From a virus (taxonomy: Duplodnaviria > Heunggongvirae > Uroviricota > Caudoviricetes): a DNA stretch of 5,567 bases. Under the pieces are notes generated by a model that had not been told where the DNA came from, did no database searches, and was given only the letters and a program-made list of their open reading frames with translations. The position numbers were made by a program, and so were the translations under genes. Each line of letters opens with the position of its first letter. Position 1 is the stretch's first letter. Shown one piece after another: positions 168-5,542 of the stretch. The DNA lies in the IMG/VR virus record IMGVR_UViG_2681813261_000015. The stretch is one strand, 5' to 3'.

Positions 168-425
168 TTGAACAACCAGACAATGACTTTTACCCCTGAA
201 CAATTGCGTAAACACGCGCAGGAAATGCTGCGTCATGCTGAACAACTCGAAAAAACGGGCATAACAAAAGACGCTATCCGTAAAGATATGGTACCCGCGC
301 TTCGGGAACTGATGCAGGCGAAGCATCGCGCACAGAAAGCAGTAGATGAGCTGGTGGACTGTGTGGCAGAGCTGGAAACCAGAGTCGGAAAGTTTGAAAA
401 ACTGGTGCAGGAGGTGCTGCGCTGA
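168..425 (+). CDS. hypothetical small phage protein (nin-region), predicted helical
   Basis: 85-aa ORF starting at TTG 168 with GGAG at 157-160 seven nt upstream; alternative in-frame ATG at 183 has no obvious SD. Stop TGA 423-425 overlaps the rusA ATG at 425-427. No family recognised from memory. Confidence 0.55.
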   Translation: MNNQTMTFTPEQLRKHAQEMLRHAEQLEKTGITKDAIRKDMVPALRELMQAKHRAQKAVDELVDCVAELETRVGKFEKLVQEVLR

Positions 426-799
426 TGCGCCATGAGTTTATTTTACCTTATCCGCCGACGGTGAATACTTACTGGCGACGTCGTGACAACACATATTTTG
501 TATCAAAAGCCGGTGAGCGTTATCGCCGGGATGTGGCGCTTATTGTCCGTCAGCAGCGACTGAAATTAAGCCTGTCCGGAAGACTGGCGATAAAGATTAT
601 TGCAGAGCCACCGGATAAGCGCCGTCGTGACCTGGACAATATCCTGAAAGCACCACTGGATGCACTGACACATGCGGGAGTGTTAATGGACGATGAGCAG
701 TTTGATGAAATCAATATCGTTCGTGGTCAGCCAGTATCTGGTGGACGTCTGGGGGTGAAGATTTACCCCATAATGCATGAAGAGCAGGTCAAAAAATGA
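425..799 (+). CDS. rusA: crossover junction endodeoxyribonuclease RusA (Holliday junction resolvase)
   Basis: 124-aa product carrying LPYPPTVNTYW, RRRDLDN and DALTHAG...DDEQ motifs, which match the RusA family as I recall E. coli RusA (..LPWPPSNNRYY.., ..[20 protein letters not shown]..). Stop TGA 797-799 overlaps the Q start ATG 796-798. Confidence 0.9.
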   Translation: MRHEFILPYPPTVNTYWRRRDNTYFVSKAGERYRRDVALIVRQQRLKLSLSGRLAIKIIAEPPDKRRRDLDNILKAPLDALTHAGVLMDDEQFDEINIVRGQPVSGGRLGVKIYPIMHEEQVKK

Positions 800-1617
800 A
801 ACTGGAAGATTTACCGAAATACTACTCCCCAAAATCCCCTTGCCTGACCGATGCATCGGCCTCAACGTCAAAAGATGCGCTGAGTATCACTGATGTGATG
901 GCCGCGCAGGGCATGACACAGAATCGGGCTGAGATGGGGTTTTCTGCGTTCCTGGGGAAAATGGGCATCAGTATGAATGACAGGGCGCGGGCAACAGAAT
1001 TACTGGCAGATTATGCACTCAGTCGGTGCGATCGTGTGGCGGCGTTGAGAAAACTTCCGGCAGAAATAAAACCGGTAGTGATGCGCATTATGGCTTCGTA
1101 CGCTTTTGAGGATTATGCCCGCAGCGCAGCGAGTAAAAAGCAGTGCCCTTGTTGCTATGGGGAAAAATTTATTGAAAGCGTAGTTTTTACAAACAAGGTC
1201 CAGTATCCGGATGGTAAGCCGCCGGTATGGGCAAAGTGTACGAAAGGTGTGTATCCGTCTTACTGGGAAGAATGGAAAAAAGTCAGGGAGGTGGTAAAAG
1301 TTGCCTGTCCGGAGTGTGGCGGAAAGGGTGAGGTTTCCACCGCCTGTAAGGATTGCCGTGGGCGTGGTGTCGCCATTCATCGTGAAGAGTCGGTAAAACG
1401 TGGTATGCCTGTTATCAGAGACTGCCAGCGTTGTGGTGGTCGTGGCTATGAAAGACTACCATCAACGGAGGCATTTAATGCTATATGCGAGGTGACAAAC
1501 CAGATAACACGCGCGTCATGGGAAAAAACAGTTAAGAAATTTTATGATGCGCTGGTGACCCGGTTTGATATTGAAGAAGCATGGGCTGAGCGGCAGTTAA
1601 AAAAGGTAACTAGGTAA
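796..1617 (+). CDS. Q: late-gene antitermination protein Q (lambda Q family, enlarged variant)
   Basis: 273-aa product. The N-terminal half aligns with lambda Q as recalled (MKLEDLPKYYSPKSP...SITDVMAAQGM... versus MRLESVAKFHSPKSP...SGTDVMAAMGM...), and the C-terminus carries the conserved ...LYDALV.. region. Four CxxC pairs are present (CPCC, CPEC, CKDC, CQRC). It sits directly upstream of a pR'-like promoter. Confidence 0.88.
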   Translation: MKLEDLPKYYSPKSPCLTDASASTSKDALSITDVMAAQGMTQNRAEMGFSAFLGKMGISMNDRARATELLADYALSRCDRVAALRKLPAEIKPVVMRIMASYAFEDYARSAASKKQCPCCYGEKFIESVVFTNKVQYPDGKPPVWAKCTKGVYPSYWEEWKKVREVVKVACPECGGKGEVSTACKDCRGRGVAIHREESVKRGMPVIRDCQRCGGRGYERLPSTEAFNAICEVTNQITRASWEKTVKKFYDALVTRFDIEEAWAERQLKKVTR

Positions 1618-1622
1618 CAAGG

Positions 1623-1662
1623 TTGATTTTTCCGGAATCTGTGGTAAATTCGTCATAACGAT
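1623..1662 (+). promoter_or_regulatory. late promoter pR'-like with sigma70-dependent pause element (candidate Q-utilisation region)
   Basis: -35 TTGATT (1623-1628), 16-nt spacer, -10 TAAATT (1645-1650), 6 nt, then the -10-like AACGAT (1657-1662). The -10 hexamer, the spacing to AACGAT and the AACGAT element itself match lambda pR' as I recall it (TAAATT-TGACTC-AACGAT). Lies immediately downstream of Q. Confidence 0.6.
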
Positions 1663-1697
1663 GGGCGTTTTATGCCTGACGTTAGAAGAGTTTCTAC

Positions 1698-1723
1698 AAC
1701 CCGCCGCCGAGCGGGTTTTTTAT
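1698..1723 (+). terminator. Rho-independent terminator (tR'-like, ends a short pR' leader transcript)
   Basis: Stem CCCGC (1700-1704) / GCGGG (1711-1715) with 6-nt loop, extended by two A-U pairs, followed by TTTTTTAT (1716-1723). Lies about 65 nt downstream of the predicted pR' start. Confidence 0.6.
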
Positions 1724-1841
1724 GACTGAAATCGCGTCAGTACAGTAAACGCGCTGGTGGCGGTGAATACCTGTCTTTCAGCTTGCTGGCTTTTTCGACA
1801 AGAGTTATTGGTGTGTCACGTTAACCGGAAAAGGAAAAGAC

Positions 1842-2039
1842 ATGCTAAAACAGCAGGATATGACAGAAACCGCCAGAGTGGTGTTTAATGAATTAAGCGT
1901 TACCGAACCGGCGACAGTCGGGGAGATAGCGCAGAATACTTACCTTTCACGCGAACGCTGCCAGTTAATACTGACCCAGCTGGTTATGGCGGGTCTGGCA
2001 GACTATCAGTTCGGTTGTTACAGACGCCTTCCGCAGTGA
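1842..2039 (+). CDS. small hypothetical protein, possible winged-helix/HTH DNA-binding protein
   Basis: 65-aa ORF with ATG at 1842 and SD AAGGA (1832-1836) 5 nt upstream. The segment ...PATVGEIAQNTYLSRERCQLILTQLVMAGLA.. resembles a helix-turn-helix. The stop codon sits inside a terminator stem. Confidence 0.5.
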   Translation: MLKQQDMTETARVVFNELSVTEPATVGEIAQNTYLSRERCQLILTQLVMAGLADYQFGCYRRLPQ

Positions 2040-2053
2040 AGGCTTTTTTATTT
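2026..2053 (+). terminator. Rho-independent terminator
   Basis: Stem GCCTTC (2026-2031) / GAAGGC (2038-2043) with 6-nt loop, followed by TTTTTTATTT (2044-2053). Overlaps the stop codon of ORF 1842..2039. Confidence 0.6.
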
Positions 2054-2066
2054 GTGGTAAATGGGC

Positions 2067-2097
2067 GGCTGGTGGGTGTTAGGGGCACCCACCAGCC
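2067..2097. repeat. perfect 12-bp inverted repeat (stable hairpin or protein-binding palindrome) in the leader of the methyltransferase gene
   Basis: GGCTGGTGGGTG (2067-2078), 7-nt loop TTAGGGG, CACCCACCAGCC (2086-2097). All 12 pairs are Watson-Crick. No U-tract follows. Confidence 0.5.
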
Positions 2098-2189
2098 ATC
2101 TGCTCATGCGTTGGGTTCACAAGCAAACCTCAGGCCCACTGCTTTGCGCAAAAGCAGAATGAGCCTATCAGAGACAGGCTTAATGATCC

Positions 2190-3248
2190 ATGCTTAATAC
2201 TGTAAAAATATCCAGTTGTGAGTTAATCAACGCCGACTGCCTGGAATTTATCCGGTCGTTACCCGAAAATTCTGTTGACCTGATAGTCACGGACCCGCCG
2301 TACTTTAAAGTGAAGCCTGAGGGCTGGGATAACCAGTGGAAGGGCGACGATGATTACCTGAAGTGGCTGGACCAGTGTCTGGCGCAGTTCTGGCGGGTGC
2401 TGAAACCTGCCGGAAGTCTTTACCTGTTCTGTGGTCATCGCCTGGCATCTGATATCGAAATCATGATGCGTGAACGCTTCAGTGTGCTGAACCATATTAT
2501 CTGGGCGAAGCCGTCCGGACGCTGGAACGGATGCAACAAGGAAAGCCTGCGGGCGTATTTCCCCGCCACAGAGCGCATTCTGTTCGCGGAACATTATCAG
2601 GGGCCGTATCGTCCGAAAGATGCCGGGTATGCGGCGAAGGGCAGTGCACTGAAACAGCATGTGATGGCCCCGCTGATTTCTTACTTTCGTGATGCGCGAG
2701 CTGCCCTGGGGATAACGGCAAAACAGATTGCAGATGCCACAGGAAAGAAAAACATGGTGTCGCACTGGTTCAGTGCCGGTCAGTGGCAGTTGCCGAATGA
2801 AAGCGATTATCTGAAATTACAGGCGCTGTTTGCCCGGGTGGCAGAAGAGAAGCATCGGCGTGGTGAACTGGAAAAGCTCCACCACCAGCTGGTGGATACG
2901 TATACCTCACTGAACCGGCAGTATGCGGAGCTGCTGAGTGAATATAAACATCTGCGGCGGTATTTTGGCGTGACGGTGCAGGTGCCGTATACCGATGTGT
3001 GGACGCATAAACCGGTGCAGTTCTATCCCGGGAAACATCCGTGCGAAAAACCGGCAGAAATGCTGCAGCAGATAATCAGCGCTAGCAGTCGTCCGGGTGA
3101 CCTGATTGCAGATTTTTTCATGGGGTTGGGTTCGACAGTGAAAGCGGCACTGGCGCTCGGGCGTCGTGCAATTGGCGTTGAGCTGGAGACTGAACGTTTT
3201 GAGCAGACGGTTCGGGAAGTACAGGATTTAGTCAGCCAGAACGGATGA
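2190..3248 (+). CDS. DNA methyltransferase, beta-class (N6-adenine/N4-cytosine family; DPPY motif suggests N6-adenine)
   Basis: 352-aa product with catalytic motif IV (VTDPPYF) near the N-terminus and AdoMet motif I (DFFMGLGST) near the C-terminus, i.e. the circularly permuted beta-class order. A ~150-aa central insert contains an HTH-like segment (ITAKQIADATGK) and is probably the target-recognition domain. No restriction endonuclease gene is adjacent. Confidence 0.88.
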   Translation: MLNTVKISSCELINADCLEFIRSLPENSVDLIVTDPPYFKVKPEGWDNQWKGDDDYLKWLDQCLAQFWRVLKPAGSLYLFCGHRLASDIEIMMRERFSVLNHIIWAKPSGRWNGCNKESLRAYFPATERILFAEHYQGPYRPKDAGYAAKGSALKQHVMAPLISYFRDARAALGITAKQIADATGKKNMVSHWFSAGQWQLPNESDYLKLQALFARVAEEKHRRGELEKLHHQLVDTYTSLNRQYAELLSEYKHLRRYFGVTVQVPYTDVWTHKPVQFYPGKHPCEKPAEMLQQIISASSRPGDLIADFFMGLGSTVKAALALGRRAIGVELETERFEQTVREVQDLVSQNG

Positions 3249-3288
3249 TATTGAAGAATTAATTACGCGTCGTTATTATGCGGCTCCC

Positions 3289-3364
3289 GGCCCTTTAGCT
3301 CAGTGGTGAGAGCGAGCGACTCATAATCGCCAGGTCGCTGGTTCAAATCCAGCAAGGGCCACCA
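3289..3364 (+). tRNA. ileZ: tRNA-Ile2 (anticodon CAU, ileX/ileZ-like; formally Met by anticodon)
   Basis: Hand-folded cloverleaf: acceptor GGCCCTT/AAGGGCC, D-stem GCTC/GAGC, anticodon loop CTCATAA, T-arm GCTGG-TTCAAAT-CCAGC, encoded CCA. Near-identical in layout to E. coli tRNA-Ile2 as recalled. Symbol assigned from the Q-tRNA gene order known from Stx phages. Confidence 0.85.
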
Positions 3365-3371
3365 TCACATA

Positions 3372-3448
3372 CCGCCATTAGCTCATCAGGAAAGAGCGCC
3401 AGCCTTCGAAGCTGGCTGCGCGGGGTTCAAGTCCCCGATGGCGGTCCA
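3372..3448 (+). tRNA. argN: tRNA-Arg (anticodon UCG)
   Basis: Hand-folded cloverleaf: acceptor CCGCCAT/ATGGCGG, D-stem GCTC/GAGC, anticodon stem CCAGC/GCTGG with loop CTTCGAA, T-arm CGGGG-TTCAAGT-CCCCG, encoded CCA. Symbol assigned by gene order only. Confidence 0.8.
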
Positions 3449-3461
3449 TTATCTGCATCAT

Positions 3462-3538
3462 GCGTTGTTAGCTCAGCCGGACAGAGCAATTGCCTTCTAA
3501 GCAATCGGTCACTGGTTCGAATCCAGTACAGCGCGCCA
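3462..3538 (+). tRNA. argO: tRNA-Arg (anticodon UCU, decodes rare AGA)
   Basis: Hand-folded cloverleaf: acceptor GCGTTGT/ACAGCGC (one G-U pair), D-stem GCTC/GAGC, anticodon stem ATTGC/GCAAT with loop CTTCTAA, T-arm ACTGG-TTCGAAT-CCAGT, encoded CCA. Symbol assigned by gene order only. Confidence 0.8.
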
Positions 3539-3648
3539 TATTCATTCTTCCAGATTCCTTCCGGCAGAGCCTTATACTGAAATATACCTGGCTCAGGATA
3601 TTGTTGAAAATATTTTATGTTTGTCAAAAATAAAAGTTCTGTTAAGTA

Positions 3649-4002
3649 TTGATTGAGTGTTTGTTATACGGTCTAATGGTTTTTTCAGCATTAAATATTT
3701 ATCATTCATATGGTGTGGGTAGAGTGAATATTGATGAGGCGTCGGGGTGTTTCATCCTTAGGCAGCGTATTGATATAGTCAATGCAGCACGAGCAAAGGC
3801 CTTCAGCCGTTTGACAGTTTTGTTCTGTACTCCTGATCGTCTTTCGGGAAGAGACGTTATTATTCTGAATAGTGATGCTATACAGAGGGTTTGCGATGAG
3901 TTCATGGTTGCTAATTCAGAATTATTTGCTCTTGTTCAGGAGTACAACAGAATAGCCAGGACCTGTGGTATGGATGAACTTCGGATTACTCATCTGGGGT
4001 AG
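3649..4002 (+). CDS. orphan hypothetical protein in AT-rich cargo DNA (start uncertain)
   Basis: 117-aa ORF whose first codon is TTG at 3649; first in-frame ATG is at 3676. No convincing SD at either. The region is visibly AT-rich compared with the flanking phage genes. No domain recognised. Confidence 0.35.
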   Translation: MIECLLYGLMVFSALNIYHSYGVGRVNIDEASGCFILRQRIDIVNAARAKAFSRLTVLFCTPDRLSGRDVIILNSDAIQRVCDEFMVANSELFALVQEYNRIARTCGMDELRITHLG

Positions 4003-4322
4003 ATACATATCTGGATTATCACCTGTTACGGTAAAAAGTGATTGCTTACTGTTTTTGTGAATGGCATTGCAGCAGCCGGATAATGTCAGTGCTGGCTGAC
4101 GGTGTGCTGGTGGCGGGTGTGGTGGTTGTTGCTTTCCCGTTGCTGAAAAAGAAAACGCCAGACTGTTAGCCGGGTATCAGTTAGCGGGAGAAATTTTTAA
4201 ATACTTCACAATTCAGGCGGTTGACTGTTGTCTGGTTTGCGGGGAGTTTGTTAAAAGAAACTGGCATGGTGAATCCCCCTGTGCGGAGGGGCAATCAGCG
4301 AGTAGGTATATGGGATAATCGC

Positions 4323-4420
4323 GGATTCAGGTGCTGGTACTGAATTCACCGGGAGGCACCCGGCATCATGCAATGGCACATAGCGCCACTCTCCAGCCCT
4401 CTCCGGAGGGGCTTTTCTGT
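4323..4420 (+). ncRNA. candidate small structured RNA, unit A of a tandem paralogous array
   Basis: Hairpin 1 at 4323-4347 (8-bp stem with one G-U, 9-nt loop); hairpin 2 at 4349-4363 (CCGGG/CCCGG); terminator stem-loop CCCTC-TCCG-GAGGG at 4397-4410 followed by CTTTTCTGT. An extended -10-like element TGgGATAAT (4311-4319) would place the transcript start near 4326. No ORF of 60 aa or more overlaps. Confidence 0.35.
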
Positions 4421-4547
4421 GCCGGATACATCACAGTTTCTGGAACCTTAGGTACTACAGTATCAGTCAGGGTGCTATATTTTCAGATGTGATGAAAGCC
4501 TGTCAGCAGGCAGGGCGTATCGGAAATGACCCAGTAGAGAAAACGTT

Positions 4548-4635
4548 GACTCAGATACCGGTGCTGAGTTACCGGGAAACCGGCATCACATGACCGCTAT
4601 CCTTCCAGGCCCATCCGCTCCGGTGGGCCTTTTTA
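4548..4635 (+). ncRNA. candidate small structured RNA, unit B (paralogue of unit A)
   Basis: Hairpin 1' at 4548-4570 (7-bp stem, 9-nt loop); hairpin 2' CCGG-GAAA-CCGG at 4572-4583 (GNRA tetraloop); strong terminator GGCCCA...TGGGCC at 4608-4629 followed by TTTTTACTG. The arms align with unit A and show one compensatory base-pair change (T-A in A, C-G in B). No clear promoter upstream. Confidence 0.35.
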
Positions 4636-4676
4636 CTGCAGAAAACAGGTTCCCCGTTAAATGCTATGTTGCTCAC

Positions 4677-4757
4677 AATTCAGNNNNNNNNNNNNNNNNN
4701 NNNNNNNNNNNNNNNNNNNNCCCTCTCCGGAGGGGCTGTTTATATTGATTTTGTCAG
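4677..4757 (+). ncRNA. candidate unit C of the same array, core masked by N-run
   Basis: Starts with AATTCAG (4677-4683), the same left arm as hairpin 1 of unit A. It is preceded by an extended -10-like TGcTATGTT (4662-4670). After the Ns comes CCCTCTCCGGAGGGGC (4721-4736), identical to the unit A terminator hairpin, followed by a T-rich tail. Confidence 0.25.
4684..4720. other. run of 37 ambiguous bases (N); masked or unresolved sequence
   Basis: Literal n characters in the input. Falls inside the repeat array, consistent with an assembly gap or collapse caused by the repeats. Confidence 0.95.
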
Positions 4758-4769
4758 ATGTGAGTAAAC

Positions 4770-4803
4770 TCCTTATGGACTTTGTTGTTTTAGTCCATAA
4801 GGA
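4770..4803. repeat. perfect 12-bp inverted repeat with 10-nt loop at the 3' end of the minus-strand ORF
   Basis: TCCTTATGGACT (4770-4781), loop TTGTTGTTTT, AGTCCATAAGGA (4792-4803). All 12 pairs are Watson-Crick. Overlaps the stop codon (TAA, complement of 4773-4775) of ORF 4773..5108. Confidence 0.5.
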
Positions 4804-5108
4804 CATATTTGCAGAGTGCAACGGTTATTAAAGCATTCATTCAATACGTTATCTGTATTTGTAGGGCATTCCTGGCTATTTTTGATTGAATTCCAGAATG
4901 TTTTATTGAATGGTACTACGTTGTAAATGGTTACAGGTAGCACTTTGTTATTGAGCATGATGCCTGTGTGAGTCAGTGTAAATATACTTTCAGGAGGTAA
5001 GAAAGCATCCGATTGATACCAGATTATTAATTTTATTTTACTCCATATGACTGAAAAAGATATTCCGCATGATGGCTGGATAACTGTATCAATCACAATC
5101 CACTTCAT
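4773..5108 (-). CDS. orphan hypothetical protein in AT-rich cargo DNA
   Basis: 111-aa ORF with ATG start (complement of 5106-5108) and a good SD, AAGGAA, 5 nt upstream on the minus strand (complement of 5114-5119). AT-rich codon usage. Convergent with the upstream cargo. No domain recognised. Confidence 0.4.
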
Positions 5109-5353
5109 TTAGTTTCCTTGTTTATGCCTTGCTGGTGATGTTCTGAAAAGTATAAATGATATTTTTGAATGTAAACCATAGAGCAGAATTATTTTTCTGA
5201 TGTTGTTTATTGTTTATTTAAATGCAGGGTGGTTTATATCTCGTCTTGTAGTTTATCCATGCATATCTGCTTGATAATCAGGTTTTTATTTAAGGTATGG
5301 TTTTGTGTTTTTTCTGTATTACATGTCAGGTATTTTAAAGAATTATTTTTCAG

Positions 5354-5542
5354 ATGGTGGAAAGAACCATGGCATTTAAACACTATGATGTTGTCAGGGC
5401 GGCGCCGCCGTCAGATCTTGCGGAAAAGCTGACACATAAACTGAAAGAGGGCTGGCAGCCGTTTGGTAGTCCGGTGGCCATAACCCCTTATACCCTGAGG
5501 TGTACTGGCAATAGCGGACACTACCATTTGTTCTTTTTTTAA
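5354..5542 (+). CDS. small conserved lambdoid late-region protein that typically precedes the lysis cassette (DUF1737-like, from memory)
   Basis: ORF with ATG at 5354; a more likely start is the in-frame ATG at 5369, with GGTGG 8 nt upstream. The motif ...KHYDVVRAAPPSDLAEKLTHKLKEGWQPFGSPVA... matches a small protein I recall immediately upstream of holin genes in E. coli lambdoid prophages. The C-terminus looks atypical. Confidence 0.65.
   Translation: MVERTMAFKHYDVVRAAPPSDLAEKLTHKLKEGWQPFGSPVAITPYTLRCTGNSGHYHLFFF

Follow-up and report, generated by a model that had tools for sequence, protein, structure and literature searches.

The window, by which we mean the whole stretch of 5,567 nucleotides that was analysed, has as its longest open reading frame an intact gene on the plus strand (2190..3248), which starts with ATG and encodes a protein of 352 residues. 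The features recognised at this locus are the following.

796..1617, plus strand: gene for a Q-type late antiterminator of 273 residues (PF03589 Antiterm, E 6.2e-55; PHROG 'anti-termination protein Q-like', E 1e-110)
1623..1650, plus strand: candidate late promoter pR', read from the sequence, with -35 TTGATT (1623-1628), a 16-nt spacer and -10 TAAATT (1645-1650)
1698..1724, plus strand: hairpin resembling an intrinsic terminator and followed by a T run, candidate tR' (terminator scan: stem of 7 bp, 5 of them GC, then TTTTTT)
1842..2039, plus strand: 65-residue winged-helix ORF accompanying the methylase (phrog_331, E 1.4e-37)
2026..2049, plus strand: second terminator-like hairpin, likewise with a T run, where the small ORF ends (terminator scan)
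2040..2189, plus strand: conserved leader with a long hairpin at ~2061-2107, the arms of which carry inverted Chi octamers (locus alignments, fold)
2190..3248, plus strand: gene for a beta-class N6-adenine methyltransferase of the M.EcoGI/M.EcoGII family, 352 residues (Pfam N6_N4_Mtase, identity to M.EcoGI/M.EcoGII)
2292..2303, plus strand: catalytic motif IV, DPPY, residues 35-38 (translation; invariant in 42 homologues)
2604..2969, plus strand: central helical region, residues ~139-260, a predicted target recognition domain (TRD) and charged linker, within which residues 167-195 are HTH-like (unaligned to solved beta-class methyltransferases)
3117..3131, plus strand: AdoMet-binding motif I, FxGxG, here F310-M-G-L-G314 and carrying Leu313 (translation)
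3289..3538, plus strand: three tRNA genes, CAT 'Met', Arg-TCG and Arg-TCT, directly 3' of the methylase (ARAGORN, Rfam tRNA)

In a Pfam profile search the protein matched PF01555 (N6_N4_Mtase) over residues 29-340 with an E-value of 7.9e-42 and a score of 144.1 bits, the curated cut-off being 26.7 bits. Since motif IV lies N-terminal to motif I, the motif order is that of the beta class of amino-methyltransferases, as a sequence-only reading of this DNA had proposed. Closer alignment, suggested at the time as a check on the catalytic residues, left both motifs in place: they were invariant or near-invariant in sets of 42 and 128 sequences. The gene is confirmed, at the level of its predicted protein, as a real and intact beta-class DNA adenine methyltransferase, with amino-methyl transfer as the predicted reaction.

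For comparison with characterised enzymes, M.EcoGII was represented by the E. coli O104:H4 protein (P0149) that matches the M.EcoGII sequence in supplement file 5 of PMC11551740. This supplement sequence was machine-read, with errors; a corrected reading (TYKPVQYY) matched the O104:H4 protein exactly, and two other corrected readings of the printed sequence were absent from the protein collection. The published GenBank accession of M.EcoGII is EGT69837.1, from E. coli O104:H4 C227-11 (PMC11551740). A second O104:H4 copy (L002:5771-6820, WP_000935536.1) is identical to P0149 at 333 of 349 positions. Because this equals the figure of 333/349 given by Murray et al. for M.EcoGI and M.EcoGII (PMC5778455), we took the second copy to be M.EcoGI; the accession played no part in the assignment.

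The window methylase aligned without gaps to both enzymes, being identical to M.EcoGII at 327 of 348 positions (94%) and to M.EcoGI at 336 of 348 (97%), and it shares one 90%-identity cluster with M.EcoGII. The three proteins thus differ little: the window protein departs from M.EcoGII at 21 positions, of which 14 lie in residues 139-260 and one is Ser313Leu in motif I, and its C-terminus is longer by three residues (352 versus 349); relative to M.EcoGI it has 12 substitutions, Ser313Leu included. The identical protein is deposited on about 1000 contigs, mostly from Shigella sonnei. From these comparisons we consider it highly probable that the gene is an allele of M.EcoGI/M.EcoGII, solitary and prophage-borne, whose product would methylate adenine in any context, without sequence specificity. 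The enzyme is not new, but a member of a family that has already been characterised. As a discovery the gene carries little weight, given the known family and the roughly 1000 contigs that already hold its exact product. Enzymes of this family are widely used as laboratory reagents in methylation footprinting.

The surroundings of the gene are also shared with its relatives, and related loci confirmed its prophage context. M.EcoGII has in common with the window methylase the order DPPY, then FxGxG, and a collinear central region, the predicted TRD and linker; it occupies the same prophage slot, after a Q gene and the small winged-helix ORF and before the esterase and lysis genes, and the leader upstream of it is nearly identical. 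Its Q, however, belongs to PF06530, whereas that of the window belongs to PF03589, and two additional reverse-strand ORFs separate Q from the cassette in the M.EcoGII locus. The M.EcoGI locus is closer, with RusA, a 273-residue Q, a 65-residue ORF, the methylase, three tRNAs, IraM and an esterase, and with DNA that is ~95% identical over window positions 422-4416. The M.EcoGII papers group M.EcoGI with M.EcoGII and describe no separate assay of it (PMC5778455; PMC11551740). The same gene sits in the same slot, as a 'DNA methylase', in Stx-converting and related lambdoid phages (phiP27, 1720a-02 and many Stx2a, Stx2c and Stx2d phages); the order in the Stx2a phage EH1910 is rusA, Q, small ORF, methylase, three tRNAs, stx2A, stx2B. 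The window differs from the Stx phages in lacking stx, with a 117-residue ORF (phrog_2873) and STnc100 copies in the stx position. Proteins with 80% identity or more to M.EcoGII are encoded in 259 phage records, and no copy in the phage collection was closer to M.EcoGII than 93.7%.

The absence of an adjacent restriction endonuclease gene, claimed earlier from the sequence alone, held up. ORF, Pfam and PHROG annotation gave no nuclease-like gene in the window. Since a cognate endonuclease might have lain outside it, as the sequence-only reading had pointed out, the related loci L002-L011 are also relevant: among the genes called there within 4-10 kb of the methylase, several small neighbours being unannotated, no restriction-enzyme Pfam family was found. 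The methylase has no recognisable restriction partner in these stretches, which supports its description as an orphan.

The placement of the gene between a late promoter and the tRNAs, also proposed beforehand, agrees with the coordinates of Q (796-1617), the candidate pR' (1623-1650) and the tRNA genes (3289-3538). In relatives, the 273-residue Q is annotated as quuQ/antitermination protein, and the CAT tRNA, called 'Met' here, is Ile in RefSeq relatives and tRNA-Ile in the O104:H4 annotation. The candidate pR' matches the consensus at 8 of 12 positions, below the threshold of the promoter scan; both relatives that share the Q type of the window keep it, and the M.EcoGII locus, with its different Q type, lacks it. 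The hairpin at 1698..1724 occurs in all four aligned loci, with a z-score of -3.2 for the fold of 1655-1730, and the hairpin at 2026..2049 in three of the four, being degenerate in the M.EcoGII locus. The promoter scan gave no promoter-like site on the plus strand from 1725 to 2190, and a conserved Shine-Dalgarno sequence is absent ahead of the methylase. Downstream of the tRNAs, relatives carry either stx2AB or esterase, holin and lysozyme genes. The order on a single strand is therefore Q, candidate promoter with terminator-like hairpins, and methylase, with late or lysis genes following in relatives, and the placement of the methylase in the late operon is structurally supported by this predicted arrangement. 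A gene placed in this way, with Q on its 5' side and the tRNAs on its 3' side, is most naturally read as transcribed late and in dependence on Q; we infer the Q dependence, timing and level of its expression from gene order. The high level of late expression proposed beforehand is a prediction, to be set against the two terminator-like hairpins, the structured leader and the missing conserved Shine-Dalgarno sequence ahead of the gene, and against the harm that the expressed homologue does to cells. The two terminator-like hairpins upstream imply that it may be silent in the lysogen.

From gene order and published facts on homologues, the following mechanism can be proposed. In the lysogen, a constitutive late promoter just 3' of Q would fire, and its transcripts would stop at 1698-1724 and 2026-2049, leaving the enzyme silent. 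Upon induction, Q would render RNA polymerase resistant to these terminators, and the winged-helix ORF and the methylase would be co-transcribed with the tRNAs and with the late genes beyond them, which in relatives are those of Shiga toxin or of the lysis cassette. The enzyme would then heavily methylate replicating phage DNA ahead of packaging, and progeny genomes might enter new hosts already protected, m6A being a block to many restriction systems of Types I, II and III. The lysogen does not express M.EcoGII, and cells made to express it grow more slowly (PMC5778455); enzymes of this type are described as harmful upon expression (PMC5778455; PMC11551740). As late as 2024, M.EcoGII was described as having no known biological role (PMC11551740), and our literature searches found no in vivo study of the role of the enzyme. 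The anti-restriction benefit proposed here would have its costs: E. coli is poorly transformed by DNA rich in m6A (PMC5778455), and m6A-dependent Type IV nucleases accept such DNA as a substrate (PMC11037411). In many Stx2 phages the methylase lies directly 5' of the tRNAs and stx2AB, apparently in one late transcription unit, and its regulation may therefore bear on the biology of toxin phages.

The central part of the protein separates it from the solved enzymes of its class. Beta-class enzymes in the PDB match the methylase at residues ~8-114 and ~281-343 only, and its 312 aligned residues span a Pfam profile of 221 positions; the central insert is real. CcrM, M.RsrI, M.MboIIA, DpnA, M.PvuII and the 8urk/9c3u methyltransferase have the same Rossmann core and motif order, but the solved site-specific beta-class enzymes recognise defined sites and have no similarity to the central ~165 residues of the methylase. 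We found no solved structure of M.EcoGII, the best PDB sequence matches covering the catalytic core only. An AF2 model of the methylase, built on an input alignment of 42 sequences of 74-94% identity and used for secondary structure only, was of low confidence (pLDDT 62.5) and placed helices at residues 147-173, 177-184, 204-223 and 231-254. This layout is in agreement with the AF2 model published for M.EcoGII, with which the sequence is collinear and which has a four-helix-bundle TRD at residues 160-237 with an HTH inside it (PMC11551740). Pfam HTH_3 matched residues 167-195 below threshold (E 0.0086), giving weak support to the HTH-like segment. Thus, of the earlier proposal that a central insert of ~150 residues with an HTH-like segment probably sets a specificity not known at the time, the insert stands, being skipped in the PDB alignments, and the HTH-like segment is weakly indicated, while the role assigned to it in setting an unknown specificity is superseded by the identity to M.EcoGI and M.EcoGII.

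What specificity may be expected follows from these relatives. M.EcoGII methylates adenine non-specifically on double- and single-stranded DNA, RNA and hybrids (PMC5778455). All tested reconstructed ancestors were active on DNA and RNA, and Nanopore direct RNA sequencing of M.EcoGII, Anc291 and SUPREM, the last ~69% identical to the window methylase, revealed no sequence motif (PMC11551740). Homologues at ~93% similarity are listed with the predicted specificity 'nonspecific' (Table 3 of PMC6602927). Given the identity of the methylase to M.EcoGII (94%) and M.EcoGI (97%), and given active ancestors without an RNA motif that are ~69% identical to it, no sequence specificity is expected, and by this comparison the enzyme almost certainly has none. 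The same data make it very unlikely that the gene encodes a site-specific orphan methyltransferase with a recognition site set by its central HTH-containing domain. Such an enzyme would be in keeping with the HTH-like element in that domain (the weak HTH_3 match; PMC11551740), with the concentration of 14 of the 21 differences from M.EcoGII in the TRD and linker, and with M.PflMI (CCANNNNNTGG), the nearest site-specific relative, for which a similar overall fold is predicted (PMC11551740). It would also fit the automatic NCBI name, 'site-specific DNA-methyltransferase', but this is a generic family label, and as an annotation it is probably wrong for the whole M.EcoGI/M.EcoGII family.

The non-specific methylase could also be impaired, or act on something other than progeny DNA. 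Of 128 homologues, 127 have Ser at position 313 and the remaining one, of the same sequence as the window methylase, has Leu; residue 197 is Gly here and Ser in 96% of homologues. The identical protein in Shigella sonnei is found in IS-riddled prophage remnants adjoining ompW, and selection on the enzyme may therefore be relaxed there. It is conceivable from these observations that the gene only looks intact and is a relic within a decaying prophage, its activity weakened or abolished by Ser313Leu in the AdoMet-binding loop together with other lineage-specific changes. We consider this unlikely, since the ORF is full-length, the identical sequence is kept on ~1000 contigs, every other invariant residue is retained, and the window has undamaged copies of Q, the small ORF, the leader and the tRNAs. 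Ser313Leu was not upheld as an inactivating change, because at the equivalent position of the GxG loop the active CcrM carries Val, and a T. thermophilus enzyme Thr; full activity of the Leu313 allele would be our expectation from the sequence. As for the substrate, M.EcoGII methylates single-stranded RNA and RNA:DNA hybrids in vitro and slows growth (PMC5778455), and three tRNA genes lie immediately 3' of the methylase in the same predicted transcription unit. The target might then be RNA, namely late mRNAs or the adjacent phage tRNAs, or the host chromosome, hypermethylation of which would shut down host replication, repair or transcription in lytic growth. This appears highly improbable: activity on DNA is far above that on RNA, DNA has been argued by the authors to be the native substrate, and m6A in bacterial mRNA is without known function (PMC11551740). 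The adjacency of tRNAs is, moreover, not universal, the tRNA check having covered a part of the loci, with many from other genera outside it. Methylation of progeny DNA by an active, non-specific enzyme is the reading that we retain.

Some likeness exists to other enzymes that modify phage DNA broadly. The alpha-class promiscuous adenine methyltransferases (Drozdz et al.) and Mom of phage Mu share with the window methylase that they would be phage-borne agents of broad DNA modification, and the likeness is one of analogy only. Their architecture is unrelated: in the enzymes of Drozdz et al. the motifs follow the order of the alpha class, and Mom does not belong to the M.EcoGII family of AdoMet methyltransferases.

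The methylase, the 65-residue winged-helix ORF and the leader of ~150 nt co-travel across Enterobacterales, independently of Q type. The small ORF lies directly 5' of the methyltransferase in 55 of 80 genome loci, and in 67 of 68 viral loci a methyltransferase gene follows it within less than 400 nt; the viral-contig scan returned near-identical E. coli copies only (79 identical, one at 98%), and the latter count speaks for these copies, the reverse association across diverse phages being beyond its scope. The ORF gave weak Pfam matches to TrmB/MarR. Its AF2 model, built with database homologues (pLDDT 91), has an H-H-H-beta-hairpin winged-helix fold; Foldseek returned generic winged-helix matches only, and no DpnI-like m6A reader was among the 50 fold-search matches listed. 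A small winged-helix gene beside a methyltransferase (55/80 and 67/68 loci) brings to mind the controller (C-protein) systems. Classical C proteins are Xre-type HTH proteins of restriction-modification systems. A targeted literature search found nothing on this co-travelling small ORF and leader or on a controller, and the M.EcoGII papers are silent on such control. It is tempting to speculate, although we hold this only tentatively, that the 65-residue protein, the leader and the methylase form a mobile three-part cassette that moves among lambdoid prophages irrespective of Q type, and that the small protein and/or the leader may silence, time or direct a self-toxic enzyme, the small protein serving perhaps to control the enzyme, to partner it or to read m6A. 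The conserved ORF and leader offer a testable handle on how phages might control a self-toxic, indiscriminate methylase.

The leader itself is near-invariant in four E. coli loci and conserved over 24 loci of many genera. Its fold is stable, the minimum free energy having a z-score of -4.06, and RNAalifold gave hardly any covariation (term -0.81, with double changes in 4 of 29 pairs); its conservation might just as well stem from a DNA element or from recent spread as from RNA structure. Rfam gave nothing above noise in the interval between Q and the methylase. Chi octamers are present at 2068 (plus strand) and 2089 (minus strand). A Chi function is not supported as what is conserved in the leader, since the octamers are missing from the Providencia and Rosenbergiella loci and from one Buttiauxella locus, in which different bases maintain the hairpin.

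The longest ORF of the window (2190-3248, plus strand; 352 aa, ATG start) encodes a protein that matches the Pfam family PF01555 (N6_N4_Mtase) with an E-value of 7.9e-42 and 144 bits (threshold 26.7). Its motif IV (DPPY, residues 35-38) precedes motif I (F-M-G-L-G, residues 310-314), which is the beta-class order. The sequence-only reading was thus right to call the enzyme beta-class, and its description of the ORF, of DPPY before FxGxG and of a central insert with an HTH-like segment was accurate. Upon alignment, solved beta-class enzymes (the unnamed methyltransferase 8urk/9c3u, M.RsrI, CcrM, DpnA, M.MboIIA and M.PvuII) cover only residues ~8-114 and ~281-343, and the ~165 residues in the middle have no relative of known structure. 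A sub-threshold HTH_3 match (E 0.0086) falls in this central region, at residues 167-195. The AF2 model of the whole methylase is poor (pLDDT 62.5), with helices at 147-173, 177-184, 204-223 and 231-254.

The lead to M.EcoGII of E. coli O104:H4 came from a literature search. Its sequence was taken from supplement file 5 of PMC11551740, where machine-reading errors are present; one corrected version exactly matched a protein-collection entry from O104:H4, P0149 (AFS73976.1 and others; UniProt A0A0E0Y1D5_ECO1C), which shares one 90%-identity cluster with the window protein. These two are identical at 327/348 positions, and the window protein agrees with the methylase of the O104:H4 locus resembling the window at 336/348. 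Both O104:H4 methylases lie on one chromosome and are 333/349 identical to each other, exactly the figure given by Murray et al. for M.EcoGI and M.EcoGII (PMC5778455). The identity to both indicates that the window gene is an allele of M.EcoGI/M.EcoGII. The methylase is a real and correctly located feature, of an enzyme family that is already known.

M.EcoGII is an adenine methylase indifferent to sequence context: it modifies as much as 96-99% of dA in vitro and also accepts single-stranded DNA, RNA and RNA:DNA hybrids (PMC5778455). It elutes as a dimer, and its AF2 model consists of a split Rossmann core (residues 1-134 and 260-349), a charged linker and a TRD in the form of a four-helix bundle with an HTH (residues 160-237) (PMC11551740). 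Every reconstructed ancestor that was assayed acted on both DNA and RNA, and Nanopore direct RNA sequencing revealed no sequence motif for M.EcoGII or for the ancestral variants Anc291 and SUPREM (PMC11551740); the latter, as machine-read, is ~69% identical to the window protein. Homologues of ~93% similarity have been given the predicted specificity "nonspecific" (PMC6602927, Table 3). A central domain with a probable HTH, as proposed earlier, is present, but the notion that it sets an unknown specificity has been overtaken by experiments on near-identical proteins. Since those proteins are non-specific, the window methylase is itself expected to have no sequence specificity, i.e. to accept "any adenine", and the first reading gains most from being corrected on this point. 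The term "orphan" holds so far as a test is possible: the window contains no nuclease-like gene, and in the related loci examined no restriction-enzyme Pfam family was recorded for any called gene lying 4-10 kb or less from the methylase. It has been proposed that M.EcoGII is turned on at induction and defeats host restriction (PMC5778455), and according to PMC11551740 its role in nature is not yet known.

Could the window carry a weakened or dead allele? Comparison with 128 full-length homologues shows just three sites at which a strongly conserved residue is replaced in the window protein: Gly197 (96% have Ser), Ile306 (91% have Val) and Leu313 (127/128 have Ser). Leu313 (codon at 3126-3128) sits between the motif I glycines, giving G-L-G in place of G-S-G. 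An identical protein occurs in ~1000 contigs, and in the six complete genomes inspected, Shigella sonnei 53G included, it lies in an IS-riddled prophage remnant adjoining ompW. A weakened or dead allele seems improbable to us. Position 313 is occupied by Val in CcrM, which is active, and by Thr in a Thermus enzyme, so that Leu313 need not inactivate. The Leu313 allele is the one that has spread through Shigella sonnei in IS-disrupted prophage remnants. The window is 97.7% identical to the ompW-adjoining locus over 427-3551, and the flanks differ.

The window DNA belongs with the lambdoid prophages found in E. coli and Shigella. It matches 370 phage records, for the most part Stx-converting phages, and at least part of it has a match in 5049 of 5426 complete E. 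coli genomes.

Features of the window around the methylase gene
425-799, plus strand: RusA, upstream of the methylase
796-1617, plus strand: Q-type antiterminator, 273 aa (PF03589, E 6e-55)
1623-1650: candidate promoter (pR') read from the sequence directly after the Q stop codon; TTGATT 1623-1628, 16-nt spacer, TAAATT 1645-1650
1698-1724: good intrinsic-terminator-like hairpin with T run
1842-2039, plus strand: small ORF, 65 aa (phrog_331)
2026-2049: second terminator-like hairpin with T run, at the end of the small ORF
2040-2189: 150-nt leader between small ORF and methylase, with a hairpin at ~2061-2107
3289-3538: three tRNA genes, downstream of the methylase
3649-4002, plus strand: 117-aa ORF (phrog_2873, E 4e-70)
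4235-4424: STnc100 sRNA, full match (122 bits)
4463-4636: second, weaker STnc100 copy (30 bits, below threshold)
Downstream of the methylase, reverse strand: IraM
Downstream of the methylase: start only of a DUF1737/esterase gene

An N run (assembly gap) begins at 4684, 3' of both STnc100 copies. The Stx2a phage EH1910 has the order rusA, Q, small ORF, "DNA methylase", three tRNAs, stx2A, stx2B, and E. coli O104:H4 has the same arrangement followed by IraM, esterase, holin and lysozyme; the window is an stx-less version of this region. The 117-aa ORF stands where Stx2a phages that share the upstream cassette carry stx2AB. The M.EcoGII prophage of O104:H4 (loci L009/L011) carries two reverse-strand ORFs of 182 and 308 aa (3920-5381 of those loci), with no Pfam match, between Q and the small-ORF/methylase cassette, and the window lacks both.

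Only one lead merits pursuit: the methylase gene is accompanied by a conserved winged-helix ORF and leader. The AF2 model of the small protein is a confident winged helix (pLDDT 91), for which Foldseek gave generic winged-helix matches only, among the matches listed. We collected 80 genome loci (L012-L091), one per species, picked by the methylase alone at 62-96% identity and spanning Enterobacterales genera from Escherichia, Salmonella, Klebsiella and Citrobacter through Providencia, Photorhabdus and Xenorhabdus. A small-ORF homologue lies directly 5' of the methylase in 55 of them, with an intergenic gap of 90-200 nt; the same Q family occurs in only 11 of the 80. In viral contigs with the small ORF and enough 3' sequence, the methylase follows within 400 nt in 67/68, and the Q type of the window is found in only 19/77 small-ORF viral contigs, although these contigs are not independent evidence because their small-protein copies are identical or near-identical (98-100%). 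Small ORF and methylase behave as a mobile pair; the Q type upstream of them varies. The leader hardly varies among E. coli loci and shows good conservation across 24 loci of many genera; its fold is stable (z = -4.06), its covariation by RNAalifold is weak, and the alignment of the 24 leaders contains no conserved Shine-Dalgarno sequence before the methylase start codon. As a hypothesis, small ORF and leader could add a layer of control over an enzyme that is self-toxic. A literature search found no published account of the pairing.

Placement of the gene in a Q-dependent late operon draws on the candidate pR', which scores 8/12, under the scan threshold. In the locus alignment it is kept in the two relatives with the same Q type and missing from the M.EcoGII locus, where Q is of another family; a Q-specific pR'/qut region would be expected to show such a distribution. 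Between the first terminator and the methylase, the scan detected no promoter-like site on the plus strand. The pR' of Stx phages fires constitutively, and in lysogens its transcription stops at tR' (PMC7547250); by analogy, the methylase should be silent in the lysogen until Q acts, and we infer this, promoter and Q dependence included, from the structure of the region. The "high-level" expression claimed earlier is not supported, given the stable structured leader and the want of a conserved Shine-Dalgarno sequence. If the candidate pR' is real, it would yield a terminated lysogen RNA of ~70 nt (1657-1724) that forms two hairpins (fold z = -3.2) and recalls StxS, the sRNA arising from pR'-tR' of Stx phages (PMC7547250). 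Just past the methylase stop codon lies another promoter-like site (3251-3279, plus strand; TTGAAG, 17 nt, TATTAT; 9/12), with the first tRNA 10 nt further on, so the tRNAs may have their own promoter too.

The window is also rich in the Chi octamer GCTGGTGG, with 7 copies in 5.5 kb where shuffled sequence would give 0.21 (350, 1753, 2068, 2089(-), 2882(-), 2888 and 4106), and related loci are likewise Chi-rich (8-11 copies per 9-13 kb). The inverted pair 2068/2089(-) forms the arms of the leader hairpin, and the other, 2882(-)/2888, is the palindrome CCACCAGCTGGTGG within the methylase codons for HHQLV (residues 231-235).
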